DNA of 64,000 nucleotides from a virus (IMGVR_UViG_3300031576_001126:32001-96000); one strand, 5' to 3'; numbered from the stretch's first letter, positions 188 through 60,000 are shown. Notes: a model not told the origin generated them from the letters alone. Made by a program: numbers and translations.

Positions 188-3100
188 CAGCCGTTTTTCG
201 CATGCCGTATATTTCGGCTGCTGGCGAAATACTTACCGGACAAATGGAGTCTACAAGATGGAAAATCGTAGACAAACAATTGGAGGCCCTTTATTCTTTT
301 CTTGGCGATGGCATTATTTCTGGTTGGGAAATTGAAAAAACTCCGAATATACCCTTATCGATTACAATAACACCAGGATCTGGTGTTGTTTCTGGAATAG
401 CTGCTGCAAGTTCAGATAATACAATTCTAGAAAATCTTGTGCCCGGCACTGTTTCTGGAAATACCACAAATTTTTTGTATGCCAAACTCCTCGGCCATAC
501 TCCATATACGGCACAAGTTGACTTTGTATCGTCCACGGTTTTTTATGATTCGGCTGTTTATTTGAAACTTGGAAAAGTTATTGTAGATGCTCAAAAAAAG
601 ATAGTATCTATAGACATGTCTGAGTCATCTGGAAGAAAAAATCTTAGTTTTGTCAATTTTGTCCTGTCCATTGTCAAAGAACATTTACATACTGGAGCGC
701 CAACAGAACCATCAAAGATCGATCTTCAAAATCATGTAAAGGGTATTTTAGATTCATCTCATATTGGAAATATTTCGGCATCCAAAATAACGGGAGGCTT
801 TATTTCTCCAGATAGATTTAAATTATCACATAAAGATTTACAAGATGTTGGCACACTGACACACGAAGAAATAGATTCTTTAATTGAAAAACTTCAAAAC
901 ATAAATAGATTGCTTTTTGGAGATATAATGACATCTAATTTGATGCAACTATATCTTTCTTTTAAACATATTTGGCCTGAAGTTGATGAATTTGCGCAAA
1001 ATTTTATCGCCATTATCCCAGGTATAGGAAACAACAAACTTTTAAACCCGAATAGTTTTATTGATCTTAATGCAACTACGGCTGAAATTGATTTCACAAA
1101 TCACAGAATAAGAGGAAAATCTTTAGCGGCAAAAGAACTTGCTCAAACCACAATAAACACTTTAGCCGAATGGAATTCTGGAGAATTTAATTCAAGTTTT
1201 GTAAGAATTCTAGATACAGGATCAGCTTATGGATATGGTTATGGTTATGGTGAAGGATTAGATTTCTTTGATGTATTTCAAACATCAGATTTTAATTTTC
1301 TGACAGGAACAGATCAATTTATAAGTTTTTCTGGGAATCAAACCGGATATGGCGCTGATGATTTTGAAACTGTTTTTGCGGGACAATATAGTTATGGATA
1401 TGGTTACGAATATGTCTCTGGATTTCCAAACACACTAACCACAACTTTAGTGACTTTAAATCCATTATCGCAAACATTAAACATTCATGACGAAAAACTT
1501 TCAGAAAATGAATCTGGAGGAAATGATTATATCGCATCTGATGTAAATTCTGGATTTTTTGTTCAAAAAGATCTTATTCCAGATGGAACAACAAAAGCTG
1601 CTTTTATAAAAAATTTAGGGAAAGACATAGCAACAACCGCCAGCGGACGAAGAAGCACGTCTATTGATCCATTTAATAATGGTATAAATAATATTCCTGA
1701 TGATTTATATTCTTTTTATTCATTTAAAGTTTCTTCGGGTGCTGATGGTCAAATCACCGATTCCGACAGAGCCACTGTTTATGTTGTTTGGGATAATCCC
1801 GTTGACATGACAATTAACAATGTAATCACCTTCAGAGTCGTCCAGGCAAAGGATGGTGAAGGAAATTTAACGACTTTTGATGAAAATTGGACTTTTGATC
1901 ATAGTTTTCAACTAATACTTGAAGCTACTGATGATACGCATAGAGCATATTATCTTTACAAAACAACAAATTCAACCAACAGATTTTTTGTCGGAGACGA
2001 ATACACGAATCAAAATGAAACCGCTCCTCTTGGTTTCTTTGGAACAAAATATTTTCAATCTCTTGGAGAATTTATAGACGGCAAACACAGATTCGAGTTA
2101 GCTGCCACAATAACCAGTGATTCTCTTGAGTTTGTCACGGCTTTTAATAAGAGCACTGAAGTCACCGTCAACAATCCATTTACATTTACCACATTAATTC
2201 AAAAAATAACTGGAATAATCTTATATACAGATACTATTTTTGGTCATGATAATAAACAACAAAATAATTTAGGAGCCACTTTTGTAAAATTGCCACAAGG
2301 AAGAAGAGAAAGACTACAATTTTATCCGGGTTTCGATCCTTCCGCCAGAATGCTTGCCGATATAGATAAAATATTTATTGGAGGCCCATTTGGTTTCGGC
2401 GATGATGCGGATAACAATGACATTGTGGATTTGATTGTTTCTTTTCCAGATAGAGTTGATTTTAATTCAATTAGTTGGATTTCCGATGAACCCGGAGATT
2501 CCATTGTTTGGATTCAAGTCAATAGACTTGAGGAAGATTCAGCAAACGATTATAGAACAGAACCAATTTATAGCAACAATGTGACACGAGCATCTTCCAT
2601 ATTTCCTTCCTCTGAGATAAGGGGGCCTGGAGAAGATTTTACAGACATATTTAAAAATATTCGTGGTATAAGAATGAGAGTTGTCTTATTGCCAACAACT
2701 GATAAAAGAGTTGCCCCAACAATAAGCAGCATAAGTGTTAATTATTCATCAAATACATTATCTAGTTCTTTAACAATAACTTCTTTTGAAGATTGGCAAA
2801 ATGCACGATCTGTTAAAAATTTGAAGTTGACTACAGATGGAACTGTCTATATCGATTTGCCAACGACAACCTTTGGCAAGGTTCAAAACATTTTTTATGG
2901 AACAGACAGATCTGTGGTTGAAGTAAACAATGATTTTAATACCGTTGTAAAAAGATATAATGGTTCTAATCTTCCTCTCACGGTAACACAACAATTAAAT
3001 AACCGACCCACTGGTCTTTCTGGGGCCATAACAGACCTTAAAAAGATGCGAGAAGGAGACATTGTTCTTCTCGACAGAGATGAGAGTCGGATTGTATATT

Positions 3101-4296
3101 TGGATCAAAATTATAATTTGAAAAAGATAATATCTTCAGAAAGAGTATTTTTTTCAAATATGGATGTCGGCGCTGGAGCGGCCGGAGATACGGCAACTTT
3201 AGTGAAAGCCATTTACAATAGAGAATTGAGTGATGATGGAATTCTTTATTTGGTTTTCTCTCATCAATTAGCCGCATATCCATCTCCAAATAATACCAAT
3301 GTAAAACCAAGCCAAATGTTTATAAAAAGCAAAGGACAAACAATAGATTTATCTTCAATATCCGTATCTGGAGATAGTGTCATAGCTTGCGACAGAGGGA
3401 TTTTGTCATTGAAACTAGACAGCACTATAGCCAATTTTATAGAAAGTGCTGTCAATCCGGTATTTCAGATAAGATTGGATTCAAATCCCGCTGTTATATT
3501 CGCTGGGACAACCACGGTAACGGCTGGAAGAATAGACATGCCAATCGTAAAAATTGGATCCAAGGGTATCTTTTCAAGTTATAATCTTATTTATGCTCCA
3601 ATTCAAGGCGTTGTTGCTTTCGATATAGACAATGATCTTGATATATTGCATCTATTAAAAAGTCAAAAACCTTATTCTTGGGACACCGATTCCAGTGTTG
3701 ATAATGTCTGGTATGCAAGATTCAGTGTAAATAGATTTTGGACATCTTGGAACTCATCTGATTCAAATAGCGCCCTTATTGATCCGAATATAGAAACTAA
3801 CATTAACACTATTCGTGGAACTGAAAGTGATCCAAGTTTAGTTTCTCCAAACTTTTTTATTAATAATTTCTTTGGATACAAGGGCTCATTACAAAGATTT
3901 GGTGATTGGATGCTCATAACGTTATGTGGAGATAAAAAAGTATTCATTACAAAAAAAGATGATTCTACTGAAGGTGTTTTAAAATTCAGACAACCAACAA
4001 CAATAGATTTGCCGGAAGACGGAACAACACCAATGGCGGCGAGACTGGACCCATTAACAACAACCGCTGATGATTTTAATTTTGTTTATGTGGCTTTGAG
4101 TGATTTAAGAAGAGGGACAACAGATAAAACTGGCGAGTCCAAAATTGTAAAAATTCAAGTAGGAGTTGTTCCCTCTCAAATGATTATCTGGACTTGGGGA
4201 TCGGGCAGTGATGAGCGCACGACCCAGGCAGTGTCGTGTAACGATATCCGTCCTCTTCTTTATACAGATGCCGAAGGTGTATTTGTGAGCACATAA
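175..4296 (+). CDS. Large putative virion structural protein (1373 aa): tail/baseplate-anchor-like N-terminus, Tyr/Gly tag, beta-sandwich, C-terminal beta-propeller-like region
   Basis: GGAGAG about 8 nt before ATG. N-terminus (GDGIISGW...ITITPGSG...HLHTG..PSKIDL...DVGTLTHEEID...TSNL) is paralogous to the N-terminus of the 6287-aa ORF. C-terminal DIVLLDRDESRIVYLD / SKIVKIQ..IIWTWG resembles NHL-like blades. Confidence 0.75.
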   Translation: MPRVTAVFRMPYISAAGEILTGQMESTRWKIVDKQLEALYSFLGDGIISGWEIEKTPNIPLSITITPGSGVVSGIAAASSDNTILENLVPGTVSGNTTNFLYAKLLGHTPYTAQVDFVSSTVFYDSAVYLKLGKVIVDAQKKIVSIDMSESSGRKNLSFVNFVLSIVKEHLHTGAPTEPSKIDLQNHVKGILDSSHIGNISASKITGGFISPDRFKLSHKDLQDVGTLTHEEIDSLIEKLQNINRLLFGDIMTSNLMQLYLSFKHIWPEVDEFAQNFIAIIPGIGNNKLLNPNSFIDLNATTAEIDFTNHRIRGKSLAAKELAQTTINTLAEWNSGEFNSSFVRILDTGSAYGYGYGYGEGLDFFDVFQTSDFNFLTGTDQFISFSGNQTGYGADDFETVFAGQYSYGYGYEYVSGFPNTLTTTLVTLNPLSQTLNIHDEKLSENESGGNDYIASDVNSGFFVQKDLIPDGTTKAAFIKNLGKDIATTASGRRSTSIDPFNNGINNIPDDLYSFYSFKVSSGADGQITDSDRATVYVVWDNPVDMTINNVITFRVVQAKDGEGNLTTFDENWTFDHSFQLILEATDDTHRAYYLYKTTNSTNRFFVGDEYTNQNETAPLGFFGTKYFQSLGEFIDGKHRFELAATITSDSLEFVTAFNKSTEVTVNNPFTFTTLIQKITGIILYTDTIFGHDNKQQNNLGATFVKLPQGRRERLQFYPGFDPSARMLADIDKIFIGGPFGFGDDADNNDIVDLIVSFPDRVDFNSISWISDEPGDSIVWIQVNRLEEDSANDYRTEPIYSNNVTRASSIFPSSEIRGPGEDFTDIFKNIRGIRMRVVLLPTTDKRVAPTISSISVNYSSNTLSSSLTITSFEDWQNARSVKNLKLTTDGTVYIDLPTTTFGKVQNIFYGTDRSVVEVNNDFNTVVKRYNGSNLPLTVTQQLNNRPTGLSGAITDLKKMREGDIVLLDRDESRIVYLDQNYNLKKIISSERVFFSNMDVGAGAAGDTATLVKAIYNRELSDDGILYLVFSHQLAAYPSPNNTNVKPSQMFIKSKGQTIDLSSISVSGDSVIACDRGILSLKLDSTIANFIESAVNPVFQIRLDSNPAVIFAGTTTVTAGRIDMPIVKIGSKGIFSSYNLIYAPIQGVVAFDIDNDLDILHLLKSQKPYSWDTDSSVDNVWYARFSVNRFWTSWNSSDSNSALIDPNIETNINTIRGTESDPSLVSPNFFINNFFGYKGSLQRFGDWMLITLCGDKKVFITKKDDSTEGVLKFRQPTTIDLPEDGTTPMAARLDPLTTTADDFNFVYVALSDLRRGTTDKTGESKIVKIQVGVVPSQMIIWTWGSGSDERTTQAVSCNDIRPLLYTDAEGVFVST
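1228..1413 (+). repeat. Tyr/Gly tag copy 1
   Basis: YGYGYGYGEGLDFFDVF...GYG..DFE...QYSYGYGYEY. Confidence 0.85.
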
Positions 4297-9996: not shown

Positions 9997-10009
9997 TGGA
10001 GCTTAAAAA

Positions 10010-29221: not shown

Positions 29222-30553
29222 ATGGCAAGTCAGATTCAATTCGATATATCAATATCCGCTTCTGCTCCAATTGTCGCTGCAATTGGTTCGGCTAATCTTT
29301 TATTGAATGGAAGTTTTGAAAGTTTTGAATCTCTTACTCCTTTTCTCCCTTCGGATTGGGTTTTGCTTCCACTTCCTCCGGGACCAGGAAGTCCTGTTTT
29401 TGGACCTGAGACATCAACTGTTTTTGATGAAATAAAAAGCCTTAAGTGGTCCCACGATGGAATCGGGCAGCGTCCAAGCATTCAACAAATAATAACCGCT
29501 CAAACATACATGGATGGTAAAACCATGAAGGTGACCGGGAAAATCAGGTCATCAACATCAGACAAACAAACTTTGTCTATGTCGGTAGGCATTAACGGAG
29601 TTGGAACACCAACTCTTGTCTTGCCAAATGGTAGTCAGAATGAGAACATAGAAACTCCAGAAACTGGGGTTGTTTTTAATTTAGAATATGATAATCAACA
29701 ATGGTATGATTTTGATTTTTATTATCATGTTCCAGAATCTGGAATTTTTTCATTAGGCCCAGTTCTTTTCCCAACAGCGACAGACAGTACCACGGAAGTT
29801 TATCTCGATGATGTAAGAATGTTTTTTGAAATAACGAATAGGTCGGAATCGTGGAGAATAGATCTTGAACCAATTGATAATCTTCTTTATGGATATGGAT
29901 ATGGGTATTCATATGATTTTATAAATGTTGGAGATCCAATTGACTTAACCGATTTGAGTTATTTTAATGTATTCGGTATTCTTGGAGATTATGAAGGAAT
30001 TGGATATAATAATACAGTAACAAATATTGACTTGCCATCTGAGTTTGTTGATGCCGGATATCAATATGGATTTGGTTATGAGTCAGGACCATTCTTCAAG
30101 GCTGACGGAGAAGACACCATAACAGTCAGAGCAACTGTTTTTGAAAACAATATAAGACAACCGAATATAAGAGTTGTTTTTAAAGCATCTCCGTTTGTTA
30201 CTTTGTCCCCGCATTCAACTACCACGGATGCTTTTGGAGAAGCCTTTTGTAATGTGAGTTTCAATTCCGATGTAAGCCAAAACACTTTAAGACAACCTGG
30301 AAATACAGTTTTATCAAATGTTAGCTTCAATGGATTTCTTTCGATATTTTGTGAGATTGATAAAAACCCAGAAGAAGAAGAGGGAATATTCTTAATACAA
30401 ACAAGCTCTGTGCAAGTAACGAACACATCCTTAAATATATTGGATATAGGAACATATGGGTTCGGAAAAAGGACATATGGGTATGGCTATAATTACGGAT
30501 ACGGTTATACTCCAAATAATTTTGATATAAATGATCTGTTTTTCATATCGTGA
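29222..30553 (+). CDS. 443-aa protein: CBM-like domain + Tyr/Gly tag + Big_1 (invasin/intimin Ig-like) domain + C-terminal YGYG tail
   Basis: NLLLNGSFE...KSLKWSHDG...VYLDDVRM. KADGEDTITVRATV...VVF...LSPHSTTTDAFGEA is a Big_1 signature. Confidence 0.7.
   Translation: MASQIQFDISISASAPIVAAIGSANLLLNGSFESFESLTPFLPSDWVLLPLPPGPGSPVFGPETSTVFDEIKSLKWSHDGIGQRPSIQQIITAQTYMDGKTMKVTGKIRSSTSDKQTLSMSVGINGVGTPTLVLPNGSQNENIETPETGVVFNLEYDNQQWYDFDFYYHVPESGIFSLGPVLFPTATDSTTEVYLDDVRMFFEITNRSESWRIDLEPIDNLLYGYGYGYSYDFINVGDPIDLTDLSYFNVFGILGDYEGIGYNNTVTNIDLPSEFVDAGYQYGFGYESGPFFKADGEDTITVRATVFENNIRQPNIRVVFKASPFVTLSPHSTTTDAFGEAFCNVSFNSDVSQNTLRQPGNTVLSNVSFNGFLSIFCEIDKNPEEEEGIFLIQTSSVQVTNTSLNILDIGTYGFGKRTYGYGYNYGYGYTPNNFDINDLFFIS
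29888..30082 (+). repeat. Tyr/Gly tag copy 4 (divergent); partial extra copy at 30455-30508
   Basis: YGYGYGYSY...LSYFNVFG...GYQYGFGYE. Confidence 0.75.
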
Positions 30554-37225: not shown

Positions 37226-37229
37226 ATAC

Positions 37230-37973: not shown

Positions 37974-37974
37974 C

Positions 37975-49900: not shown

Positions 49901-52900
49901 CATTCGAAGATAACGACATTGATTTCAATACTAAATTTCCTTCTTTAAGAATAGGAAAACTCGGAGATTTTTTAACTGTAGATTATAGTGGAAAAATAAC
50001 GGCAAGCAGATCGACAAATCAAACATTACAAAATGGATTATGGTATTCAAATACGTTCGGAGAAGGCTTTGTTAAAATAGATGGATTGGAAATCGGAGGG
50101 ATAGATGACAGACCAGGATGTTTGGATGCTTATCTTTTTGACAATGGGAGAGTTTCCGCAATATTAAATAATGACGATACAATAAGAATATTAACTAACA
50201 ATAATAGATTGCCGTCTGGAAATATTAATAAAGTTTTTACAACGCCAGACGGAAATATTTTTGCCCTAACCTCTAACGGTCTTTGCGTAATAGAAGGAGA
50301 TGAAGAACTTGAATTCTCTTCTTTTTTCTATAATAATTTCACAAATATAATGGATCTCGGTGCGGATCAAAGATATATTTTTGATGCGGAAAACAAAACC
50401 TTTATATTGAGTGGAATTCCTAATGAATTTTATGGAGACGAAACTCCAACGTTAGCTAGTTTTAACTTTAATAATGTCGTAGCCACGTTAAAAGACTCAA
50501 AAGAAACAATTTGGGTTGGAACAGAAGGGTTTGGTTTGTATGCTGTTTTTGGGAATAATATATACAACTTCAATGCTGATAATAGCAACATAGGAAGCAA
50601 TACAATAAGATCCGTAATAGAAGATAATAGAGGAAATATCTGGGTAGCAAGTGGAAATGGTGGGGTTTCCACCAGCTTTTACGGAGACAATATAAACGAG
50701 ATACCGGCAATAGTTTGGACAAACTTTCCAACTGGAATAGGGTTTACTGAAAATACAGGATTAACTGGGGCCGTAAATTCAATTAATGTAAGAAACACAA
50801 TGTCCATAATAGCCGACGGAACAGTAGATGTTCCTCAAGTAAATATAGATTGGACAAATATATCTTCTGTATTCCCAAAATCTATTATTTTACGAAGCAA
50901 TTCAACTATTACTCCGTCCGTCGTAAATGGGACAGATATAACTTTTGTTCCAATAAGAGACATAGTTTTAACCATCGAAGAAGAAACCAATAACGGGAAT
51001 CTTGTGTGGAGAATAACTGGCTCGACAGCAATCGATTATGGAACAAACAATCTTATTGGCAAGCACATTGTTCCAGACACAAGATCGAACACCAATGGTT
51101 TTGAAATAATTTTTAATTCTTTTAATTCGTTTGACATTCAAAGAGTTGAAGATGAAAATCCTCCGTCAATTGGTAATTTTATGATAGTCGAAAAGATCGA
51201 TTCCGCTTTTGTTGTCTATGCTGGTGACGGCACAGACATTGGTTTTAATTTTTCAGATGTCGATTTGCCAAACAACAATCAATATACATATTTCTTATTT
51301 TTTTATAATGATGTAAATTTCATATATAAATTAACAGACAGAAAGACTGTGGAGTTATCTGATTCTGAAATAGATTCTCAAAACGAACTCGATATGATTT
51401 GTGGTGGAAGTGGAGGATTGTTTAAATTTACTCCAAGCGAAGATACACAATTTACTTTTATTGCTTCGTTTGGAGAAGGAAATGATATCACAAATATATT
51501 CTTTGACACATCAAATATTGGTTGGCTTGCCGCAACAAGCAAGTTGGTTGAATTTAATTCTCCAAATATTATAACAGAATTCGGAATAAACGATTTATTT
51601 TCTGGTAAAACCGACAGTATCCCATCGTCCATGATTGTCAGAAATGCAGCCGAAAGATCAAACGGAGATATTGTCATAGCTACAGATGTGGGGCTATCCA
51701 TAAGGGATATTGCTGAATTTACTTCTATAATAGAGAATGATCCAGACATATCATTCAGAGATGATTCTGGAAATCTAACACTTAACGATTGGAGACCATC
51801 AACACTATTAAGTGCTGGGTCTGATCAGTTCAGTTTTATTGATGTTGGAGAAAACAACGCTCTTTTAGCCGTGAGAAAAAATATTTTTTCCACATCAAGT
51901 GGTGGTAATAATTGGTCAATAACAAACAACAACGATGACAACGTTATTTTCGATACTATAAAATTTGCTCACAAAATAGAAAAAGATAATGAAATAATAG
52001 ATATATTATTTTTCACAGACAGATCAATATATAGCTCTGGATCTGATAATATAGATATTTTAGAAACAGAAAATCTTCCATCAAGATCCGGCATTCTTGA
52101 ATCTTATTCAATAGGAGATATGTGGTTATCAGAAGGACCATCTTCATCAAGACTGATCATCGGGATGTATAATAACAATATTGTTGAAGAAGAAAGAGAA
52201 CTTGCTATTATTGATTTTTCATCACCTGATGAATTTACCACGCCTGTAACATTTATAAGTGGAAAAGATGGATTATCCATTCAATCTGCATATTCCTTCG
52301 CTGAAATAAATGACGGATTAGACATAATAATATGCTCAGGGTGTAAGGATTCGATAATATTTAAAAAGAATAGCGATTCTTGGAAACCCTTTATAACCGG
52401 AGAAATCGAACCGGAAACATTTGTTTATACCTCATTGTCCGCCAGAGTAGATGAAGAATCAATAGAACATGGAAAAACATTATATGCCACAAGAACTCCT
52501 ATCTATGGTGTTGATTTTGCACCTCAAGTATTATCATTCAGAATAGACGCCCCGTTGGTTGATAATAAAGTATTTAAATACGATGTAAACGGTTCGTTGG
52601 CTGGAAGAGTGCGAGATGGATTTCGGATTTATCCATCTCCGATAATCAAAGTGGACCGTCCAGCGATTGGCGAGTACAATCCCCAATGGTTCCAAAAAAA
52701 CATATATCGTGGGCATATTGGGGCAGTTAAATTTATAGAGTCAAGCAGATCTCTTGTTTTGGGAGGGTTTGCAAACACTTTAATGGTTATTCCCTTTACG
52801 GCGGAAAGATCGGATGATTTTAGGAAATTGGCATGTGGTGTTTATTCTGGTCTTAGAGGACATAGAAATTTCATTCCCAATCAAGCTGCTTATTCATCAA

Positions 52901-55900
52901 CAGAATATGTGGGATTTTATTTGCCATATGAAATCAATGAAGATTCAATATTCGCATCAGGTGTTTTCTCATTCTCTTCTGGCCTTAACAATAAAACAGA
53001 ATCGAACTTCTTGACAAAAAACAAAAATGCATGGTCTGTGAAATTTAACGAAGAAGATGGTTTCGCTTCATATTTACATTTTGGACAAAATAATTTTAAT
53101 GATAACAAGAAATTTAAATTTAATTCTACGGATAACATTAGTTATTTAATGAAGACAAGAGATGGCGGACAAATATGGTATTCCTCGATAAACAATGTCA
53201 CCGGAGAAAGCGAATTCCCGGTTGCCTCTGTCGGCGATTGGATTTTCAATAAATTAGATCAAGATAATATTATAATTTCAACAGTTAACGGTTTATATGA
53301 GTCTGGAGAATATAATTCTGGAATATTTGTTACGTTTGATGGAGGACATGGTTGGAGCAACGTTACTGATGTTCTTCCAAAGGTTCCGGCAAAATCCATA
53401 GAATTAATAGAAGATAAAGTTTATGCCGGTATGCTTGGGTACGGCGTTTTTAATACAAGCTTGGCTTCAATAAATTCTCTTGTTCCTGATTGGGAACAGT
53501 TTGAGTCAAGATACACAACTCTCAATGGAATTAATATAGGTCTATGGAATGTCACTTCTATAGAGGAGGACAGAATTAATCCCGAAAGATTATTGATTGG
53601 GACAACTAATCAAGGGGTTGTTCAATCTCTCAATTCTGGAGAAAGTTGGTCTTTCGATGATAATGGAATTCCTTCTGGAAATATAACCGTCATAAAAATG
53701 TTAGCCGTGAATCCCTTTGTCACTCTTGTTGGAATAAAAAACGATGGGCTTTACATAAAAAATAATGACATACAAAAATATGAAAAGAAAACAAATGGAC
53801 TTCCAACAAATTCAAATATAAGAGATATAAAAATAGACATAACATTCTCTGATATATATCTTGAATTTAATTATTCTAATTCTCTGAATGATTTTATATT
53901 AATAATAAGGGCTGATTTCTTGCCTCCTTCAAGGACTCCTGAAAACGGGGTATTATATCAAGTTGGAGGAGAAATAGAAAATGCTAACGTTGTATATTTT
54001 GGAAATGAAGATTTCTCTCTAAATAAATTTGTGGATAGGAACGGAAAGATAAGAGATGGTATTCCATATTATTATAGATTTTTTACATTGAATTTAGATG
54101 GGACATATACCGAAAGAGATATTATTCTTGGAAAATCAACCCTTGTGGAATCATTAAAAATAACAGACACTAGTAGCGCTCGTCTGGCCGATCCATTCCC
54201 AACGTCTGGGAATGGATTAAAACACAGAATCGTCAAACCATCCACATTAACAACACAATCCAAGCCAATGGAGATAGTTTCAAATACAGGAACAGAATTG
54301 TTCTTGAGAGCAGATCCTTTTGAAATATTAAATAGAGGGGGGGATGCTACTTTTGGAAACAGTATATTAAGGAATCAGCAATATCGCATAGATTCAACCC
54401 TTATCGTTATTCCAATAAAGATAAATCCCATTTATATTATAGCTGAAGATATTTCAAATGGAATTTCTAAAGTTTACTATTCTAACAACAACGGCGAATC
54501 CTGGTTTGAAAGAAATTCAGGAATAACATCTACGGACATTAGAACGTTAACTTTGGAAATATTAAATATCGAATCAAGACTTCTTTTAGAACAGGCTGCA
54601 ATATACATATCTACTGCCGATGGAGTTTTTAAAAGCGAAGACAATGGATTGAGTTGGAACGAAATAAGTTCTTCTTCCGGAACAAATATCCTTCCAAACT
54701 CCATTCCATATAGAAAAGTTGTAGTGGATCTTGAAGACTGCAATATAGTTTATGCTTTAAATGATAACGGAGAAACTTTTAGAAGCTTGAATGAGGGAGA
54801 TTCTTGGGAACTTATGAATTCTTTTGATGGAGAGTTTAATGTGGCGGATATTGTTTCTTTCTTTACAAACCATATATATGTTGGGACAAATGGAGATGGA
54901 ATAATAAGGTTAGAAAATTCAGTAAGAGATAGAATTGATCTAAACGTTATAGCTGATGGGAATATCTCGTTTTTCGATATAGATTTCATAGAAATAGGTG
55001 ATTTTGCATCGACAGATACAAACTCAATAACAGCAAGCACTCTTGTTAAAAATGATTCCATATCGAACAACAGAGAACAAATAAGATTTAAAACAAAAGA
55101 ATATGCAAACAATATTCAAATACTTATTAAAAATAATGATATTCCATTTAATGTTGAGGATGTATTCATCGGTGATCAGCTTGCTAATCCTCCTAGTAAT
55201 CCGTTTATCTTAAGAATCCCCGAAACAGAAGACGATCCTACAATAGTTAATCAAATTATATCTCTTTCTGATAATAATTTGTATGCCGCAACAAACAGGG
55301 GGGCCTTTTTTACGAGTGATTTTGGATTAAAATGGAATAAAATAAACAATCCGGAATTGCCAGATGAAATTCTGGATATCGCCGATATAAGAAATAATGA
55401 ATTGGCATTAGCGACAGCAAGCGGACTATGGACCAGCACTAACGATAGAAAAGATTTTGGAATAATAGAATCTTCAGGAAAAAGAATAAATACTATTTTT
55501 GAATCTTCAGATAGAATAGTGAGAAATTTGATTAGGGGAGGAGAAAATGGTCTTAGAATTACAATAGAAAATTCAAAAAGTATAATAGCCTTTTCTGGAA
55601 AAAACAGACAAATAAAATTAAGCTGGGGCGATATCTTTAACAGAGTGGACGGAGGATGGTCTGAAAACACTCAAATAATATTGGCTGATCCAATTTTCAG
55701 ACCAATAAAACCCGATGATAATTCTTTGACAAGTTTTGATGGATGGGATCATGCCCTTATTGTTAGGAAAGGACCGTTTACTACTTTTGAAAAAGCTTTG
55801 GCTGCTGGAATAAACAACAATATATTTGCTCCCCAAACACAAGTTGTTTATCCAACTAATACTTTGGTTAGCGTTTATAACACCCCAATATCAATTGCTC

Positions 55901-56838
55901 AATTTTTTGCATCTTCTAATTCTATAAAAGAAAGCCTAGAAGAAATAAGAGATGTTAATTTGAAAGGTAAAAATTTGGTTGGTGTTCCGTTCAGTCCTCA
56001 AAGATTTATGACTGATGGATCCATTATTGTGGGTGTTCTTCCCAATAGGAAGAGAAGTGTTGCCGGATATCCAGATGAGTTTGATTTCGGTCCAAGTCCA
56101 GAATATCCAATAATCGATTCGGTACAACCAATTACTCAAGACAGAACATTACCAAATAATATTGCCGATTTGGACGCAGGAGTCGTAGCTCCAATTATAA
56201 AAGACGATATGTTTTATCTTTATAGAATTTATCCTTATGTTCTTGTTCCAGAACCGTTTGCCATAACTCCTGATGAAGAATTTCCGAAACTTCCAAACTA
56301 TAGACCGTCAACGGGGGATCTCCCAGATTCGTATAGCTATAATCTTGATCCAGATGACTTTCAGGGAGGAATTTCTACGGTCTTTAGCGGAATTACAATA
56401 GATGGGAATAACTGGATAATTGGAACAGATAACGGAATTTTTTATTCGACACAAGCTGGTAGAGATCCGGTTCCAACCGATAGTCAAGGAATAGCTGGAT
56501 CTGGATTTAAAATTCCAGCTTTAATCCAAACTTCAACTAACATTGTTCTTGCGGCAATAGTTTCGAATCAGGCGGTTTATCTTGCCAAGAGTGTGGAAAT
56601 TCCTTTAGGCAAAAACTGGGAAATAATAACTCCAACTATAAATAAATTTTCTGCGGCAGATGTTAAACGTATTTTTAATATCACAGAGGATGCTAATGGA
56701 TTCATTTATGTCACTACTAACGCTGGCATCTTTAAAGGTGATGCTAATGGAGATAATTGGGTTCTTTCTGGCAGTGTTGGAGATTTGGAAGCATTAAGTG
56801 GGAATCGAGTAATTGGACAGGAATTTCTGGTTATATAA
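37975..56838 (+). CDS. Giant putative virion adhesin/fibre (6287 aa) with many BNR/Asp-box propellers, Reg_prop-like propeller, FN3-like modules and three Tyr/Gly tags
   Basis: More than a dozen SxDxGxxW Asp-boxes (KSVDEGLSW, RTIDGGLNW, ISLDSGRTW, RSTDGGNTW, KSTDGGKTW, KSEDNGLSW...). Reg_prop-like SNTIRSVIEDNRGNIWVA. N-terminus paralogous to 175..4296. Confidence 0.8.
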   Translation: MANRRTSKYLLQYFEDGDVYSAKADMQRFQTVENQLDLALKLSGGGVLSGWGLLQTSDQSGTTAITINPGFGIVPFTLTKIDQITGVATKEQHFIGVRTNAPIIIPNLGLNRISVIYIEINNQLIQNLQNNPEAIIDLSEEAILIIVRPSINSPAGSGPYRTTTSTNEAGLEKDISTGQSFDEYPIYFKKIDGLTFIPDNNKAVVFINDKKLFRRYFTTGSQGNVIGFNDPLHQEDNVIVRVDPLNSLVIGEVRTDNTKVIDINNEAKEFAREKSADSLVGPATQSHVHDGQEGNPSKILLTTKTDFISPSSTSEDRIFTFNKPDESVYGHNFANGTYETFVYINGFFSFNSASVLDNGSTITVTFQQSLEPIDVVQIVLVLNNDQTQIKSTLNLSGNNPSEEKVDINISGDSIKLDQIDPILIPAISHIGRHKEAMRPGNDPFSSREYVHRSENFDYQEFYPVHKNKFNARNAKHIFFDEKNSSLKLIHACASNDFLYMETDKLMFQLPENFIGGWSSITLNKDINEYDSPFIIIPVKNPINITSDNWDRLFYVGNRFINQNDWQDLNNPDLDEIVNLSFDLNTTPNTANRTNINGIRIQDACGGESPLLMDKTAFMLLDNRVYVYDYISNLSKYFWLDITSTPLWNEAVSLSCIEVEENTILFVGTSDGKIYCNILASSEINNRIDSGANFVPNGNIDFKPFNIWENNSYSYGYGYSQAIDFFDVFGVRGNVFGYGTSGYGFGNEEKLPIKVDNNLLFVTANVSEKNTVATVSDTSLSLVNNLLNTFVGKTSGLPNSFVLLDWFEIANGLSGEIRKVIFSNDRLVVTSDSDVYYSDEVGDKTNLYFKEDYTWTNAFAPSDTHNDINSTSNDILILASDNSIYRGVWNGLFYSWSVSENTIYGISINNILHPSSTIIVDENDIYSCGKYGIFKSVDEGLSWRSTTQIIGLPEDRNSVFTTEKIELRVLDTDPSLGRIIVSKSEFPYGYGYGYGYGEGLDFFDVFGIESTTYGYGVGDFESTYSNQYGYGYGLEISDILGFINDNDWIFFGDNSGSIYRNIPLRVLGHGVDVSGLFYLDVELADASKADFSEIIENQIFSIFRKKEPLAIINGIPQDRRYDSTDIEEYEADYFRQSVVFDNEINPDDEITIASEYKAYEPIFKSIIGLSIDDIRVNGLTVAVLPRDIDADNFIVISDSANIDDIVRITIKNLYITDVGSFSHEEIEDKLSIEELGLPYKLEGIRTSNLLISIMAMQHMFPNTTDLDSDTEINGTATSTARDYIDDSSKTFAPGSLIGRRIILDSEDKEFDYTIENNTASRIWILRKRTYDNFSENANGTESSFLLRTPAILNDFRAYLDGEEQALTADYTLESTLEGITTIVFTMPPVTGSHVIVAYVAVEDDLDFRDFINVGELYEILPIKTSPFSDLINTFVTMYEDESSIDVEFSFIENIILISNDDIGKKTDLTSYIYFNPVDEFIYAGTNKGIWKREKDVSVFCKTSELLPTIDATGSFNPPDTLNGLYVQYNKTTNEWTLTWGLGTNQRDINDNLDDINITAIAHNPADTDMILAGSQDCLYRTIDGGLNWNIVWDFRTDDRIKEFPVPRQIVFDDKNPWIVNVVNQSGLFRSFDYGNNFETISTYDIATRKLDASRSFSYQVDDSDIRGLYYYGENKLKIKNYKSISSFGADNSTVIETGDKNILGISLADLVIRKIENNTSNVNEVFLASEGYGVLKSTVMGNDPQVSRYDFKKQYFNFTDELIDQFNNPNNLNFINNTGAWHFLPDPDRPGETVGRYVIFIDNIRGRTYILTKIENGRRVPTHGEFIGKFITLEANTGFYTFKVIGHYNRGLLPSRTNAIYPNGKEISSQIVEFVLDGRYPFLYNSNLLPLIEDPPGSGNFRRKREGDFKYYWYGLDAPFSTHPALFPVIVQFGSQVPLFAPSNGSINRALVSNGNLFEKNFSGLITFASYRRSETLSPTSSSGNISYTFIKPSVDLFEYSYLFVNGTYRAEVVVNGKSTSNPNTITDTGSTIIVDFDVALSSGDTVGLVLFVINANTQNEEIMIEIHYPTFGGFGDAPPSYFLVVDGLKDFYFGDIQAEEKYKIISSRIKTLTPEEIPLFYAKIYLKLDPESFRDDDLDDLVRLWNIDAQNTPPTPSGRISHAAIFHSMIISSFVSNAITFNQGNLPTILSDGYDLRGYVLYPRLDSSAFFKILSNTEDTIVLDSNNILEIARIGDQSRVGMDIQSGRVLDITIDRNNPKIIYASAKDNPYISLDSGRTWRLINDGLPINSSINESFVKFEKIKIHNSYLYGCALNFAENLGGGIYRFDGNSWEQIGGIDGDDLIPKSVNDFAIFDDLGDTIIYAGTLQDGIYKGNDTLGSFVWEKQKLPDHIINSMDLVKKDNGDLERVWIGTAGKGLFRKDGLSDKTWEIEYDNILKNSEIKSVLWRPWNIFEKNSDIFVDSLFSTITTINTGFNLIETKKYVQVNYGPAESLGLENDPDLFDWEKIGEKKDDKEIPHVFSIDQSNASHITESIDRTITDHDLPDNRRLTAFVSGIKGSGALSENFGNGALLAGIGVPSNSLGIERVNIDSNQPTIYEEPFSHLPDRQSITTIEESDSGRIFFGTDRSGVWRTKSSNGRKYLLPFVENPSDSFDLSNYGYDYIVGRLERFLATSVSDFPNQNTFNRITGIDPTGEIGFIDTSSLFDGIGYSERFFRAENIYTYTVKSSESPDLFSDITLHGSDIIGGYFVLSEITNEARGVVGSNRIILEIINLKSESGDYKLFLSAGQRQAILPPQVISDAIWIAIDKEIESPSGNYNKIVIMDFEKYEDISGNLPKTDIKNSLGVKESAVFIRDMKVIGSEAVIGCGIGGLFVSKDINNLNTSDIEWFNILVPSEIKDITSIVCIPKTPTSGYGYGYGEGLDYFDVFGLDGSLYGYGLGLFEYDYSYGYGYGVGIEYESLDIYVGTWGNGVWAHKGGHWIGDIFTGGTWEEVDELNLKHKNIWKLFLSSNGLLYAGTEHGGIYVIDPNGGSWIREIDNITRSKLFIWKTEGYSTKNESVSVFTNKDNILTYSFGGGVMRSLDEGNSWEQAINGLSNIYVQDLTICPNSTSDTAYVATAGGGVYKTTNAFTGNCSWIKLPTNGLPENLNIDEIEVGNDPNIVYIKTRINDLSFKSLPLSIKNVASVSDPPIFEFGDWTGSLNTSLFNGTRFTPLQPYTKGDRKAIIFRSTDGGNTWESVYDKDPKFTDRDYRFSSSVFGLTLRPGQNDIVHFLYKSTLTSNNPSVGNIDSFFFVTMNGDQIISETIFPLDSYQNLKILNQRTDAYISVNPMNFDEIYISLHGNVGSTFQLPPIYKSTDGGKTWFYSNGHFTSSESFNTKLQISNKIPPSVSAVVSDVSSSISLIGNTENIDKNTAIFENTKIFFSSNFNRIITSSFTQTTTEDPFTDSLFFTYRDEPVVGEINSYPRSFYLTGATIQPNINQPTIIAIQNGGHGDFLPKLTKGVGNSNNPQFVTVVLDQTFSGAILDPISNKCKIGNLTSIKIDYSSLPTESIFRKENSLIGLDISIGGIATKIAIHRALYPVVSSTIPNKIELIVIGDFGSSIAIGTVMSVTLKQPIYSNYDNDLMLSVNSGVSWKKIGKESFSLALDNIKGIANNTVLPTTVPLTVRSTYLLQDEGENSVVYRGDARDERYENQSIERLIWTKIVIDSTFKSNKTLFNGLAFSESRSAIYISESNKISKISISPSISVTTLFDNLNISHPLVVSEANSNDMLFVANSSVYSSKDGFETFQVFTLPQAITPASIKRIVLSRNPDIPDEVFLCVDAGQSFEQSTFNSSGVISEGTTNIIRFALSVGQKNPFENFIKRYISFEVNGSNSIFNTRIERITSSEIYTLSTIVGSVISFSYDTITNKTSLTGNGSPLDAGAYAGNIVTIQTSLNVDALTIFTSRVEDVENITESTFDIIVNGDLRQTFEDNDIDFNTKFPSLRIGKLGDFLTVDYSGKITASRSTNQTLQNGLWYSNTFGEGFVKIDGLEIGGIDDRPGCLDAYLFDNGRVSAILNNDDTIRILTNNNRLPSGNINKVFTTPDGNIFALTSNGLCVIEGDEELEFSSFFYNNFTNIMDLGADQRYIFDAENKTFILSGIPNEFYGDETPTLASFNFNNVVATLKDSKETIWVGTEGFGLYAVFGNNIYNFNADNSNIGSNTIRSVIEDNRGNIWVASGNGGVSTSFYGDNINEIPAIVWTNFPTGIGFTENTGLTGAVNSINVRNTMSIIADGTVDVPQVNIDWTNISSVFPKSIILRSNSTITPSVVNGTDITFVPIRDIVLTIEEETNNGNLVWRITGSTAIDYGTNNLIGKHIVPDTRSNTNGFEIIFNSFNSFDIQRVEDENPPSIGNFMIVEKIDSAFVVYAGDGTDIGFNFSDVDLPNNNQYTYFLFFYNDVNFIYKLTDRKTVELSDSEIDSQNELDMICGGSGGLFKFTPSEDTQFTFIASFGEGNDITNIFFDTSNIGWLAATSKLVEFNSPNIITEFGINDLFSGKTDSIPSSMIVRNAAERSNGDIVIATDVGLSIRDIAEFTSIIENDPDISFRDDSGNLTLNDWRPSTLLSAGSDQFSFIDVGENNALLAVRKNIFSTSSGGNNWSITNNNDDNVIFDTIKFAHKIEKDNEIIDILFFTDRSIYSSGSDNIDILETENLPSRSGILESYSIGDMWLSEGPSSSRLIIGMYNNNIVEEERELAIIDFSSPDEFTTPVTFISGKDGLSIQSAYSFAEINDGLDIIICSGCKDSIIFKKNSDSWKPFITGEIEPETFVYTSLSARVDEESIEHGKTLYATRTPIYGVDFAPQVLSFRIDAPLVDNKVFKYDVNGSLAGRVRDGFRIYPSPIIKVDRPAIGEYNPQWFQKNIYRGHIGAVKFIESSRSLVLGGFANTLMVIPFTAERSDDFRKLACGVYSGLRGHRNFIPNQAAYSSTEYVGFYLPYEINEDSIFASGVFSFSSGLNNKTESNFLTKNKNAWSVKFNEEDGFASYLHFGQNNFNDNKKFKFNSTDNISYLMKTRDGGQIWYSSINNVTGESEFPVASVGDWIFNKLDQDNIIISTVNGLYESGEYNSGIFVTFDGGHGWSNVTDVLPKVPAKSIELIEDKVYAGMLGYGVFNTSLASINSLVPDWEQFESRYTTLNGINIGLWNVTSIEEDRINPERLLIGTTNQGVVQSLNSGESWSFDDNGIPSGNITVIKMLAVNPFVTLVGIKNDGLYIKNNDIQKYEKKTNGLPTNSNIRDIKIDITFSDIYLEFNYSNSLNDFILIIRADFLPPSRTPENGVLYQVGGEIENANVVYFGNEDFSLNKFVDRNGKIRDGIPYYYRFFTLNLDGTYTERDIILGKSTLVESLKITDTSSARLADPFPTSGNGLKHRIVKPSTLTTQSKPMEIVSNTGTELFLRADPFEILNRGGDATFGNSILRNQQYRIDSTLIVIPIKINPIYIIAEDISNGISKVYYSNNNGESWFERNSGITSTDIRTLTLEILNIESRLLLEQAAIYISTADGVFKSEDNGLSWNEISSSSGTNILPNSIPYRKVVVDLEDCNIVYALNDNGETFRSLNEGDSWELMNSFDGEFNVADIVSFFTNHIYVGTNGDGIIRLENSVRDRIDLNVIADGNISFFDIDFIEIGDFASTDTNSITASTLVKNDSISNNREQIRFKTKEYANNIQILIKNNDIPFNVEDVFIGDQLANPPSNPFILRIPETEDDPTIVNQIISLSDNNLYAATNRGAFFTSDFGLKWNKINNPELPDEILDIADIRNNELALATASGLWTSTNDRKDFGIIESSGKRINTIFESSDRIVRNLIRGGENGLRITIENSKSIIAFSGKNRQIKLSWGDIFNRVDGGWSENTQIILADPIFRPIKPDDNSLTSFDGWDHALIVRKGPFTTFEKALAAGINNNIFAPQTQVVYPTNTLVSVYNTPISIAQFFASSNSIKESLEEIRDVNLKGKNLVGVPFSPQRFMTDGSIIVGVLPNRKRSVAGYPDEFDFGPSPEYPIIDSVQPITQDRTLPNNIADLDAGVVAPIIKDDMFYLYRIYPYVLVPEPFAITPDEEFPKLPNYRPSTGDLPDSYSYNLDPDDFQGGISTVFSGITIDGNNWIIGTDNGIFYSTQAGRDPVPTDSQGIAGSGFKIPALIQTSTNIVLAAIVSNQAVYLAKSVEIPLGKNWEIITPTINKFSAADVKRIFNITEDANGFIYVTTNAGIFKGDANGDNWVLSGSVGDLEALSGNRVIGQEFLVI
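40108..40209 (+). repeat. Tyr/Gly tag copy 5 (short)
   Basis: YSYGYGYSQAIDFFDVFG...FGYGTSGYGFG. Confidence 0.8.
40933..41076 (+). repeat. Tyr/Gly tag copy 6
   Basis: YGYGYGYGYGEGLDFFDVFG...YGYGVGDFESTYSNQYGYGYGLE. Confidence 0.85.
46720..46860 (+). repeat. Tyr/Gly tag copy 7
   Basis: GYGYGYGEGLDYFDVFGLDGSLYGYGLGLFEYDYSYGYGYGVGIEYE. Confidence 0.85.
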
Positions 56839-56849
56839 TGGAGAAAAAC

Positions 56850-57074
56850 ATGAACGATGAAGAAAGGCTGAAGTTGGTCAACTACTTTGGAATAGATTAT
56901 GATGATTTTTTTAAAGAGTGTTATCAAGTTAATATTTATCAGGATATGCCGGATATTCCCATGGATGAGTATTTAGAAAAAATAAAAGAAGAAGACGAAC
57001 GTCTGCTTGATTTTTTAAAAGATATTGTGGATCTTGATAAAGATGTCAATATATTTAAAGATATAGGACTATAA
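56850..57074 (+). CDS. Small acidic hypothetical protein (74 aa)
   Basis: GGAG at 56840-56843 precedes ATG 56850 (alternative start TAATG at 56838). Fills the gap between two giant genes. About 22 of 74 residues are D/E. Confidence 0.65.
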   Translation: MNDEERLKLVNYFGIDYDDFFKECYQVNIYQDMPDIPMDEYLEKIKEEDERLLDFLKDIVDLDKDVNIFKDIGL

Positions 57075-57077
57075 AGA

Positions 57078-60000
57078 ATGTCTGTAACCGTAAATAATAT
57101 CGGTTTATATTTATCTAGCAGGGTTGGCAACAGAACTGATTATAAGCTAGTTTTGTCTGTCTATGTTGCAGATCATGCCAATGGAGGTGTTCCCGATGGA
57201 AATTTGCCGCTAATTACTATCGAAAGAACTGTTGACGATATAGATTACTCAGGGTGGTTTGTTTTCAATTTTCCATATCCTGTTGTTTTAATTCCAGACT
57301 ATTATTGTATAACGCTTTATCAAAAACCCGACAATGTTGATTTCCCTGTGGACTTTAGCGTAAATTTCGTTCAGTGGTTTTATACTTCTTGTGAAGATCA
57401 CTCTAACAAGGGCGTGAGTTCTTTCTCTTCTGATCTTCAATTCACTTCGGATGTCTATGGATATGGATACGGGGGAGGCGGCTATGGGAGCACGTATGCC
57501 ACTTCGCCAATTTATGGATATGGATATGGATATGGCGATCCGGCGGATGCTTTAGATTTTTTTAATATATTTGAAGCTGGCGAAAATGATTATGGTTATG
57601 CGATAGGTCAACCGTCTTTTTTTTATAGTTATGGTTATGGTTTTGAATATGTCGATTTTGTTACAGATGATGTTATACAGAGAAATTTTAAAGTTTATGA
57701 AGATTTCAATCATATCGAATTTGAAGGTGAAAATAATGCCTGCATAAACATACCTGCGGCAGAAGAAATAACGCTAATCTTAAATAATAGACAAGAATTT
57801 TTAATGGCAGAACAAGATGGAACGGCCATTGTTAATGATTTTATAACTCTCGATGGCTTTGGAGAAAGATTAATTTCAACAAATGTTTCTCCGTTAACAT
57901 CGGATTGCATTTCCAACAAAAATGTGGATTGGTTTCCGGCAAATTTCGCTTTATCAAGCAATGATTTGAATTATGTAGATACAGTGAATTCGCTGGGAAA
58001 TACAAATCCATTTAATGTTAATATGGCATCTTCGCCATATTATGGTGGGATATATATAAGTGTTGATGGAGGCTCTTCATGGGATGCTAAAAATGATGGA
58101 CTAACACTAGTCGACAATAGCATTAGAAATATAAGTTGTGTAAAGTTTGGACCAGATGGATCTTTTATTTTAGCTTTTGATAATACAAGTTTATCAGAAA
58201 GAGGAAAGGTTTTTAAAAGCATTAATCTCGGAGAATCTTGGACGGAATTAATTTTGGCAAGTGCGACATTATCTGGAATAATTGTTAATGATGGATTTGT
58301 AATTAGTTCTTCTGAGATATGGATAGGAACCGACAATGGGGTTTACAGATCTCTTGATGCAGGAACCACATGGTTCCCTGAAAACAATGGTTTACCATCA
58401 TTAACTAATGTTAATCAAATTCTTGTAGATTTAGATATTCTCGGAAACTATGGATATGGTTATGGTGGAGGAGAAGGAATAAGTTATTTTGATGTTTTTG
58501 GATCAGATGGTTCTTTATTCGGTTACGGATTCGGATCTTTTGAAATGAGTTTTTCAGAGAATTTTGGTTATGAATATGGATATGAGTATGGTTTTTCCGG
58601 AGGATCTTCGAGGATAGTTGCCATAGCTACGGAATTCGGAGCTTATTGGCTTGTTAACGGTGTTTGGGAAAGAATATATCCAGATATTGGCCAACCAGAA
58701 GAAAATACTAATACAATTCTATTTAGTAACAATAATATATTTATAGGCAAAGACGATGGATTAATAAGATCAGAAATAGTTGGACCTGACGAAGAATTCG
58801 ACAGAATTCGCTTCAGAGGGCATAAAACTTCAGAAGCGATAAATGGAGATTTTTATGTAATCGGTTTGTCTAGAAGAAAAACAACAAAAGTTAGATTGAA
58901 TAGAAATAAAGAATCTGAAATTTTTGTGGCACAACACGGAGGAGTGTTCTTTTCTGAAAATGATGGTGGAAACTTTGTAAATCTAACAAAAAGTATATCG
59001 GAAAGATCATTAAAAATAAAAGATATAATAACCAATCCAATAGATAGCGAAATTATATATGCATCCGTAGAAACCACAAAATTTGCAAATGCTGGGGTTA
59101 CAATCTTGGTGGATTGCTCTGGAAGCATGGTAGCAAACGATCCTGAAGAAAAGCGCATAGATATGGCCCTAAACATTGTTGATAACATTGTTTCTGTGGC
59201 GGTCAATACTCCATATTTCCAAATAATAAGATTCGGAGTTTCAGAAAATATTTTATTAAGAAATCAATCAATTTACAATTCATTAAGGACTCAAGGTGAA
59301 GATTTCGATATAATTGGAGCCTTTAATTTAACAAAAAATATAAAAGGAAGAATAGTTGATGCTGGATATTCAAGCAATGTGACTTTAGTAAGAAAGGCAC
59401 TAGATGTTTCTTGTCGAGAGCCTTCTAGTGCAAGAGAACATGCGAGAACGTTGTTCTTTGATGCCCTAACGGCAACATCTACTGGTTTGGCTAATTTTGG
59501 ATCAAGATGGGAATACAAAGAGAATGTATCTAAGTATATTTTCGATGATATTTCTTCTAATTTTTATAACAACTTAGATAAATCTTTGATAATAATAACT
59601 GATGGAAACGATACTGTTGACGGGAAAACTCTACAACAATTAATAGATAGCTCATCAAATTATAACAATATTCCGTCAAAGACATACATCGTTGGGGTTG
59701 GGCATAATATAAACTTTGAAAATTTAAAAGCGCTTAGAGAGAGCAATAAAAATTCAAAACTTTATCTGGCTCCATTCGATGAAAACATATATTCAACATT
59801 ATCAGATGATGTTTCTGATGTAATTCTTGATCGTGAAAAATTCAGGAACAGATCTGGAATTTGGAGAAAATTAATAGATCTCGAAGAACCAAAAATAACA
59901 AAAAATGTAATTTTAAAGGCCAATGTTCCGTCTTCAACAACACTAACCTATAGACTAAGAACTACAAACAATAAAAAAGACTTCACGGATTTCACTGTAG

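Follow-up and report, generated by a model that had tools for sequence, protein, structure and literature searches.

The stretch of virus DNA analysed here, IMGVR_UViG_3300031576_001126:32001-96000 (64,000 nucleotides, hereafter the window), covers bases 32001-96000 of a single 140,188-bp IMG/VR virus record, and is of interest for a module of ~50 residues, which we call the YG cassette, that occurs nine times in the large proteins encoded there. Single copies of the cassette are referred to as tags. The record is linear, with 33.7% GC and a CheckV completeness estimate of 42%, so it is probably a piece of a much larger phage genome. It codes for a DnaE-type polymerase, a DnaB-like helicase and a UvsX-like recombinase, and no close relative was found among deposited phages, polymerase identity being ~30% at best. 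A Mu Gp36-like protein and a minor-tail-like protein are encoded upstream of the window, and the tagged genes come after these tail-type genes, in a tail region that holds ~77 kb of back-to-back plus-strand open reading frames (ORFs) of 443 to 6287 amino acids (aa) each. The domains recognisable in the large ORFs are of adhesin type: BNR/Sortilin/Reg_prop propellers, vWA, Big_1, LVIVD, an F5/8-C-like region and DUF3604. Those found in the tag-bearing proteins are BNR/Sortilin propellers, vWA, Big_1, LVIVD and F5/8-C-like domains.

All nine copies listed in an earlier note on this DNA lie where that note placed them, and they align to one pattern: [YF]GYGYG[YF]G, 2-3 residues, D[FY]F[DN][VI]F-G, ~5 residues, [YF]GYG, ~3 residues, FE, 5-6 residues and YGYGxEY, with the block order YGYGYGYG / G-L-D-[FY]-F-[DN]-[VI]-F-G / GYG / FE / YGYGYEY. 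A hidden Markov model (HMM) was built from the nine copies, as the note had proposed, and run on a six-frame translation of the whole record. Exactly nine full tags were recovered, all within five ORFs of the window and with domain E values of 2e-13 to 1e-19, the next match having an E of 0.04; a second search reproduced this result. Residue shuffles of the 11 large ORFs give an expectation of 0.04 core motifs, against 9 observed, and of 0.013 YGYGYG-type runs, against 18 observed. By the same HMM the tag is missing from the 1899-, 2251- and 2195-aa ORFs of the window, as had been claimed, and from the 1230-, 1749- and 1079-aa ORFs upstream of it. At Gly, Phe, Asp and Val codons the copies differ at most synonymous sites, to the point that synonymous divergence looks saturated while the peptide is kept. 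Because the synonymous sites differ between copies, conservation of the tag is at the level of the protein and not of the DNA, in agreement with the earlier note, and a DNA-level mobile element is rejected on the same ground.

The host ORFs, named here by their start in the window, are all on the plus strand and are indeed five in number, though the description of them as five giant proteins does not fit the one that is only 443 aa long. The first, ORF 175 (175..4296, 1373 aa), is fibre-like and matches no Pfam family. Its tag (copy 1, 1216..1425, aa 349-418; HMM E 1e-19, score 67) carries a 15-aa additional loop after DFFDVF; the position is conserved in 10 other aligned members of the 1373-aa family, and the tag lies near aa 340-400 in all 15 tag-bearing members. 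ORF 175 has its N-terminal ~70 aa and HxH and DVGxxxHEEI blocks in common with the fourth host, ORF 37975. We considered paralogy by descent for the tags of these two proteins and rejected it, as the tag order differs relative to the shared blocks, which implies that the tags were separately placed. The second host, ORF 10010 (10010..22450, 4146 aa), has a tag-free adjacent paralogue, ORF 22464-29219 (2251 aa), with which it shares three collinear blocks of 38-47% identity. The middle of ORF 10010 has ~2475 residues more than the paralogue, consisting of split repeat units and LVIVD-like propeller parts, and both of its tags fall in this extra middle, within repeat units. Copy 2 (16574..16738, HMM E 5e-15) separates the N-half (FTGSGLDD...VEITID) of a repeat unit from its C-half, while copy 3 (19040..19231, HMM E 3e-16) lies within a GHxxGDxWxF-type repeat unit and has a 10-aa additional loop before FE.

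The short host, ORF 29222 (29222..30553, 443 aa), consists of an N-terminal domain, a tag, a Big_1-like Ig domain (aa 293-345) and a C-terminal YG stretch. For the N-terminal domain, one orthologue, P0072, has a stored match to PF02018, a carbohydrate-binding jelly-roll family. The tag (copy 4, 29876..30097, HMM E 6e-17) immediately precedes the Big_1-like domain, and in an alignment of 4 orthologues (53-60% identity) its motif residues are invariant and its linkers variable. Near the C-terminus of the protein, the stretch YGFGKRTYGYGYNYGYGY (30455..30505) is a lone YG stretch and not a full tag (HMM E 5.3 only); a GYGY-type remnant of it is retained in the orthologues.

ORF 37975 (37975..56838, 6287 aa) contains several propellers of the Asp-box / Sortilin-Vps10 / Reg_prop type and three tags, at sites that we term A, B and C. 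Copy 5 (site A, 40093..40218, aa 706-752; HMM E 2e-13), which the earlier note had at 40108, is shortened, without the FE block and with little left of the third block. Copy 6 (site B, 40930..41088, aa 983-1042; HMM E 1.5e-19) is the canonical copy, and copy 7 (site C, 46708..46863, aa 2909-2968; HMM E 3e-19) sits in a propeller loop, ITSIVCIP[tag]DIYVGTWGNGVW. The last host, ORF 57078 (57078..64000), extends 400 nt beyond the window and is 2440 aa in full, with an N-terminal domain, a 7-bladed BNR propeller, a vWA domain and a DUF3604-like region. Copy 8 (57456..57662, of which 57498-57662 is the HMM match; E 5e-15) has an additional YGYGYGGGGYG run in front and ends ...FNIFE in place of FG. 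Copy 9 (58440..58592, HMM E 5e-15), for which we have an AlphaFold2 model, sits between two successive propeller strands (VNQILVD / RIVAIAT). The host domain of copies 7 and 9 has the Asp-boxes (SxDxGxxW) and the modelled seven-bladed fold of a BNR/Asp-box propeller. As observations on the rest of ORF 57078, a vWA-like domain with a DCSGSM motif of the metal ion-dependent adhesion site type follows the tagged propeller (window 59100-59800, ~aa 675-900; VWA_2, E 0.005), and aa 1772-1869 form a DUF3604/PHP-like region.

Comparison of six collinear orthologues of the 6287-aa protein (30-58% identity) reveals that individual sites come and go. Site A (aa 706 of the window protein) is present in 2/6, reduced to short remnants in 2/6 and absent from 2/6; site B (aa 983) is present in 6/6; and site C (aa 2909) is present in 2/6, the other 4/6 having a clean gap between the conserved flanks DITSIV and IYVGTWGNGVW. 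A further site, D, at aa 5111 of P0012 and aa 4747 of P0021, is present in those two proteins and not in the window protein. As a cassette that is cleanly gained or lost in frame, the module occupies loops of otherwise unrelated domains: BNR propellers, Ig-like domains and repeat units. The placement in loops that the earlier note described thus holds for three sites by clean indels between orthologues, and for one copy by structure model.

The profile of the nine copies, searched against 1.84 billion representative proteins, matches only 67 at E < 1e-3. Four orthologues of ORF 29222 were added to these matches, which brings the carriers to 72 and the tag instances to 98. Once the tags are masked, 53 carriers (48 among the 67 profile matches) group as orthologues of the five tagged window ORFs (9, 2, 17, 15 and 10 carriers), and in such orthologues the tags are at equivalent positions. 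The other 19 of the 72 resemble none of the window's large ORFs and fall into six clusters, some of whose members come from unrelated low-GC phages. No tag-bearing relative of the tag-free giant ORFs is found among the 72. Each carrier protein holds 1-3 tags, hundreds of residues apart, and some carriers are only ~160 aa long. The occurrence of the tag is limited to a rare low-GC phage group and, within it, to a consistent subset of virion-type proteins. Other searches did not widen this range: the 1373-aa protein as query found no related loci in IMG/VR, a DNA pattern for GYG-x3-DYFDVFG had zero matches there, and the 19 IMG/VR loci with a DYFDVFG pattern were discarded as chance matches, none being a tag by HMM. 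In the ESM Atlas only viral clusters without names were found, all below 0.9.

Two of the unrelated settings bear on the portability of the tag. In a second phage type of 29% GC (L010 / L046 / L047, a 65.5-kb Logan SRR27040915 contig; and L042), a 163-aa tag protein lies directly 3' of the portal gene in two contigs. Next comes a 1953-aa protein whose N-terminal region weakly matches a head-maturation protease, and the major head protein is farther downstream. We also observed that the portal gene of this phage type has a C-terminal DUF559/HNH-like endonuclease domain. In the part covered around its gene, 40 of 65 kb, the 163-aa protein is the only one with a tag, and no stored Pfam match to a glycosyltransferase or sulfotransferase was found in those 40 kb, which favours a function that needs no dedicated phage partner. 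A 26%-GC contig, for its part, encodes tags in two proteins, of 241 and 1740 aa; one of the tags there shares 66% identity with the site-B tag of the window, and nothing apart from the tag is similar between contig and window.

Across the 98 instances, columns Y9, G10, G12, F20, G31, G50 and E52 are conserved at 96-99%, D18 and D21 are Asp or Asn in >90%, Phe makes up 96% of position 20, Val or Ile occupies position 22, and position 23 holds Phe, Leu or Ile, whereas the linkers between blocks vary in sequence and length. Invariant columns are about twice as dense in the tags as in the host proteins, yet as 50-aa windows the tags reach only the 50th-83rd percentile of host conservation. Their conservation is therefore concentrated at motif positions, and full-length families do not bear out the idea that no other part of the hosts is as conserved as the tag. 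The composition of the 98 tags is extreme: Tyr 17.8%, Gly 21.4%, Phe 8.7%, Lys 0.3%, Arg 0.4% and Cys 0.1%, compared with Lys 4.4% and Arg 3.2% in the rest of the same proteins, so that basic residues are ~tenfold rarer in tags. Net charge averages -7.3, with extremes of -13 and -3, and basic residues are wholly absent from 64 of the 98.

The tag was modelled with AlphaFold2 both in context and in isolation. For residues 300-690 of ORF 57078, with 14 orthologues in the alignment, the seven-bladed propeller is obtained at a predicted local distance difference test score (pLDDT) of ~90, and the tag (residues 155-211 of the modelled segment) at <50; by Foldseek the propeller matches GH74 xyloglucanases and Ycf48 (E 1e-9 to 1e-7). 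The isolated canonical copy from site B, modelled from a 28-row alignment of tags from unrelated hosts, has a mean pLDDT of 83 and a predicted template modelling score of 0.65. This model consists of three strands and a short helix, in the order long strand (YGYGYGYGEG), bridge at the core FF, short strand (YGYG), one-turn helix (FEST) and long strand (YGYGYGLEI). From this model the tag is predicted to fold autonomously, the acidic, Phe-rich core loop and the short FE turn lying between its three Tyr-Gly strands. Comparisons of it with the PDB by Foldseek (best E 7.8), with 48,161 chains by VIA-align (no Z of 2 or more) and with BFVD (best E 4) gave no fold match, a result that is no proof of a new fold, as a 60-residue model has little power.

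Some features of the fold can be proposed from the sequences themselves. Since tag-less orthologues bridge the same loop with few residues, the first and last YG strands must presumably pair and so bring the ends of the tag together, a geometry that would make the cassette insertable anywhere. Through the Gly-Tyr alternation, one face of the sheet would be lined with Tyr side chains and the opposite face with Gly, with the Phe residues forming a small buried core and the Tyr hydroxyls at least partly exposed. The residues favoured at positions 20, 22 and 23 are in keeping with such a core. The preference for Tyr over Phe at strand-1 positions (96:3 and 91:5) suggests that these hydroxyls matter.

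We then asked how the cassette compares with described families. The nine tags give noise only against Pfam-A at E up to 10 (Keratin_2_head, E 6; DUF5320, E 7.4), and the PDB sequence matches of the profile, to the RYFNVFG motif of sugar epimerases and all at E 0.46 or worse, were judged to be chance. With no match in Pfam and none in the PDB by sequence or fold, the earlier note's discrete, portable module without a named family stands. As to role, it comes closest to the accessory surface domains of phage structural proteins (Ig-like Big_1/Big_2/I-set, and BACON), which like the tag are small, autonomous, non-essential-looking and variably present, and which are thought to adhere weakly to carbohydrates; one tag even adjoins a Big_1-like domain. 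The tag differs from them in its ~50 aa of three strands and a short helix, which are not Ig-like, in lying within loops instead of being appended as a bead, in its extreme Tyr/Gly/acidic composition and in having no Pfam match. Our conclusion from these comparisons is that the YG cassette is an undescribed domain family, while the decoration of virion proteins with small binding modules is a practice already known.

Several other likenesses are partial. CW_binding_1 repeats are aromatic-Gly hairpins with the core Y-[YF]-F-D-x-x-G, and the tag core D-Y-F-D-V-F-G has the same YFDxxG spacing as these YG repeats (choline-binding, glucan-binding and the combined repetitive oligopeptides, CROP, of toxins), which bind their ligands between aromatic residues. 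However, no tag reaches CW_binding_1 (PF01473) even at E 10, tags are single and do not form tandem ~20-aa arrays, and the flanking YGYGYG strands have no counterpart there. One G-x-G-x-D-x-F-x stretch per tag resembles a single turn of RTX / HemolysinCabind proteins, but there is neither a tandem GGxGxDxUx array nor a PF00353 match. An intein was considered and rejected, as in the alignment the tags start with variable residues plus YGYG and end G-x-E-Y, with no HN+C/S/T junction. Rickettsia palindromic elements are likewise short in-frame cassettes in many unrelated genes, usually at surface positions; these are conserved as DNA, in the form of palindromic repeats, whereas the tag is kept only as peptide. 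In the stalk of the bovine ultralong third heavy-chain complementarity-determining region (CDR-H3), a two-stranded YxYxY ribbon projects a small knob from a loop of the host fold. The analogy is architectural only, since the tag has no homology to this stalk and neither its disulfide-rich knob nor its diversification mechanism. YGYGYG-type runs do occur in the bovine D segment (PMC7366855).

Alternating Gly-Tyr runs are also found in low-complexity aromatic-rich kinked segments (LARKS), in prion-inspired GYGYGYG peptides and in GY-rich eggshell and cuticle proteins, and the earlier note had offered a LARKS-type sticker as a candidate role. This is not borne out: the tag has a fixed order of five blocks, near-invariant F20, E52 and D-x-F-D core, columns conserved at 96-99%, a confident globular prediction by AlphaFold2 (pLDDT 83 in isolation, although <50 in context) and strong acidity, with a mean net charge of -7.

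Outside the tagged genes, two sets of neighbours bear on the question of function. A glycosyltransferase and methyltransferase island (G000:C1:96439-109691; locus L003 2439-15691), with at least six GT4/GT2 genes and three methyltransferase genes, begins 39 nt after the last tagged gene, 439 nt past the end of the window; another GT4 gene was noticed on the minus strand at G000:C1:8519-10048. At the other end of the record, ~30 kb upstream of the window (locus L001, G000:C1:1153-2409 region, minus strand), lies a Sulfotransfer_3 gene of 275 aa (Pfam E 1e-14). Directly after it comes the gene for a 138-aa protein (G000:C1:1153-1569, minus strand) whose C-terminus, NYGYGYGLDHGNINFNEIFV, has the half-tag pattern YGYGYG-LD-x5-NFNEIF. 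A related 37-kb contig (L039) has the same order of sulfotransferase and half-tag genes, and its 132-aa homologue (34% identity, E 2e-22) ends KYGYGYGVDEDLDFDDIFS; a homologue search with the half-tag protein as query found only itself. The best PDB matches of the sulfotransferase are polyketide sulfotransferases, with TPST1/2 weaker (E 0.06-0.6). Its family is large and mostly bacterial, with >370 homologues, including ones of ~54% identity on Planctomycete chromosomes. Among the partner enzymes that the earlier note had suggested looking for, no peroxidase or tyrosinase was seen in the ORFs scanned, and it is this sulfotransferase and the glycosylation/methylation island that were found.

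Further observations were made on the record. A 269-aa GIY-YIG plus NUMOD3 homing-endonuclease-like ORF (window 37164-37973, plus strand) lies between two giant genes and overlaps the 3' end of ORF 30638-37225 by ~60 nt. The DnaE-type polymerase is apparently split (G000:C1:126443-131287; locus L004 14443-19287) into a 454-aa N-terminal and a 715-aa C-terminal ORF that match successive parts of one PHROG profile, with ~1.3 kb and two small ORFs between them; a mobile element may intervene here. On the minus strand, a 1605-aa ORF (G000:C1:2442-7259, locus L001) with YadA-head-type repeats (Pfam E 3e-11) and 12 repeats of one PHROG family is a further adhesin-like giant protein, and is tag-free.

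As to what the cassette does, the reading that we place first, tentatively and with less than even confidence, is that it is a self-contained binding knob displayed on the virion surface. The cassette would present an acidic patch lined with Tyr, which a divalent cation might stabilise or bridge, and the patch might bind a generic ligand such as a surface glycan, sugar-binding sites being ones that pair aromatic with acidic residues. Multiple copies on several fibre proteins would then provide multivalent, low-affinity adhesion. We rank this reading first because the tag works in unrelated proteins and phages, its hosts are adhesin-like, it lies in surface loops of propellers, and its composition is aromatic plus acidic, which is typical of sugar-binding and cation-binding sites.

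A number of points weigh against the binding knob. Receptor-binding parts of phage fibres usually evolve fast, whereas the motif residues are near-invariant across phages of 26-40% GC, and much of the conservation may be fold constraint, given that the tag windows reach only the 50th-83rd percentile. One of the carriers unrelated to the window's ORFs, the 186-aa P0063, is encoded among small genes adjoining ribonucleotide reductase, outside any obvious virion module. The predicted fold itself comes from one model with a 28-row alignment and has a pLDDT <50 in context, and the strand order and the exposed face are tentative. Finally, the presence of modification enzymes in the genome, and of a half-tag protein beside the sulfotransferase, fits other explanations.

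The first of these explanations is an affinity of tags for each other, or for short YG strands and half-tags on other proteins, in which strands would pair or the flat Gly/Tyr faces would stack, perhaps with divalent cations as bridges. The giant proteins would in this way be knitted into a fibre mesh, with the half-tag protein as a cap or assembly chaperone. Such association is self-contained, so it agrees with the portability of the tag, and it would account for the lone C-terminal YG strands of several tag proteins (ORF 29222 with its orthologues, P0047, P0057 and P0061), for the half-tag kept at the C-terminus of the 138-aa protein and its 34%-identical homologue, and for the tagging of only a fixed subset of the giant proteins. 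It also fits the self-assembly of the synthetic heptapeptide GYGYGYG into cross-beta fibrils (PMC8163036). However, with a mean net charge of -7 and almost no Lys or Arg, tags should repel each other unless bridged by cations, and for this reason we disfavour simple tag-tag sticking; AlphaFold2, moreover, predicts the tag as a closed monomeric unit. We regard association between YG strands as possible, though a good deal short of probable, and the earlier note's broader idea of a shared assembly or recognition tag as a possibility too.

An unlikely explanation, in our view, is that the cassette is an acceptor or recognition module for modification, either Tyr O-glycosylation by the glycosyltransferase/methyltransferase island or Tyr O-sulfation by Sulfotransfer_3. 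Sites at which Tyr is known to be sulfated are acidic and have many turn-forming but few basic residues and little Cys, and the tags match this in their acidity and their scarcity of Lys, Arg and Cys. The case is otherwise one of gene adjacency only: the island starts 39 nt past the last tagged gene, and the Sulfotransfer_3 gene is immediately upstream of the half-tag gene, a pairing kept in the related contig. The weak PDB matches of the enzyme do include protein-tyrosine sulfotransferases, and a bacterial Tyr sulfotransferase, RaxST, is on record (PMC4646787). Yet the family is not specific to tags, and with polyketide sulfotransferases as its best matches the enzyme may instead sulfate sugars. 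The second phage type has its tag without a stored match to either class of enzyme in the part seen, and acceptor sites are usually short and disordered, not folded units of 50 aa with a buried Phe core.

We likewise think it improbable that the cassette is neutral or purely structural, a self-folding insert spread by illegitimate recombination and tolerated in loops without any specific ligand. Its presence or absence varies at three of the four sites among collinear orthologues without loss of the host, the conserved positions are mostly Gly, aromatic and core residues, as fold constraint predicts, and conservation at the level of windows is unremarkable. But a neutral insert would not be expected to persist at site B in all six orthologues of 30-58% identity, nor to have its peptide kept while synonymous sites saturate. 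The same five protein families are tagged across the clade, with no tagged relative of the tag-free giants among the 72 carriers, and fold stability alone does not require the ~tenfold exclusion of basic residues.

A combined scheme, which we consider slightly less credible still, is a two-part system in which the cassette is an address label marking chosen virion surface proteins for a dedicated partner. The partner could be the half-tag protein, as a strand-complementing cap or adaptor, or the sulfotransferase or glycosyltransferases, which would produce polyanionic patches of sulfotyrosine or glycan.

Very unlikely is the suggestion, made in the earlier note, that the DFFDVFG core imitates the DIF motif found in the G/F region of DnaJ and so brings in Hsp70 for folding of the giant proteins: proteins of 2000-6000 aa might plausibly need a chaperone, but the likeness is one of a short motif only (D-[IV]-F-G, as in E. 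coli DnaJ), no J domain was found in the 2440-aa protein, in the two halves of the 6287-aa ORF or in the seven window ORFs that were scanned whole, no DnaJ relative was recognised among the 67 profile matches (the 19 proteins outside the window groups, short ones in phage contexts, not having been scanned for J domains), the core is predicted within a folded unit and not in a flexible linker, and tags also occur in 160-aa proteins, which should need no such help.

The finding does not touch on an open question of long standing, and the clade of carriers is a rare one (67 clusters among 1.84 billion proteins). The link to a sulfotransferase and a glycosylation island makes modification of virion proteins open to direct mass spectrometry, and if the two-part label system were true, phage fibres would for the first time be seen to use a protein-modification or strand-complementation code. 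Should the fold and the surface role of the YG cassette be confirmed, it would be a new, very small (~50 aa) self-folding domain that tolerates insertion in loops of unrelated folds, and a natural example for loop-grafted display. It would also provide a marker for poorly known large low-GC phages with ~77 kb of giant tail-region genes, and a handle on how giant phage fibres are built and functionalised.

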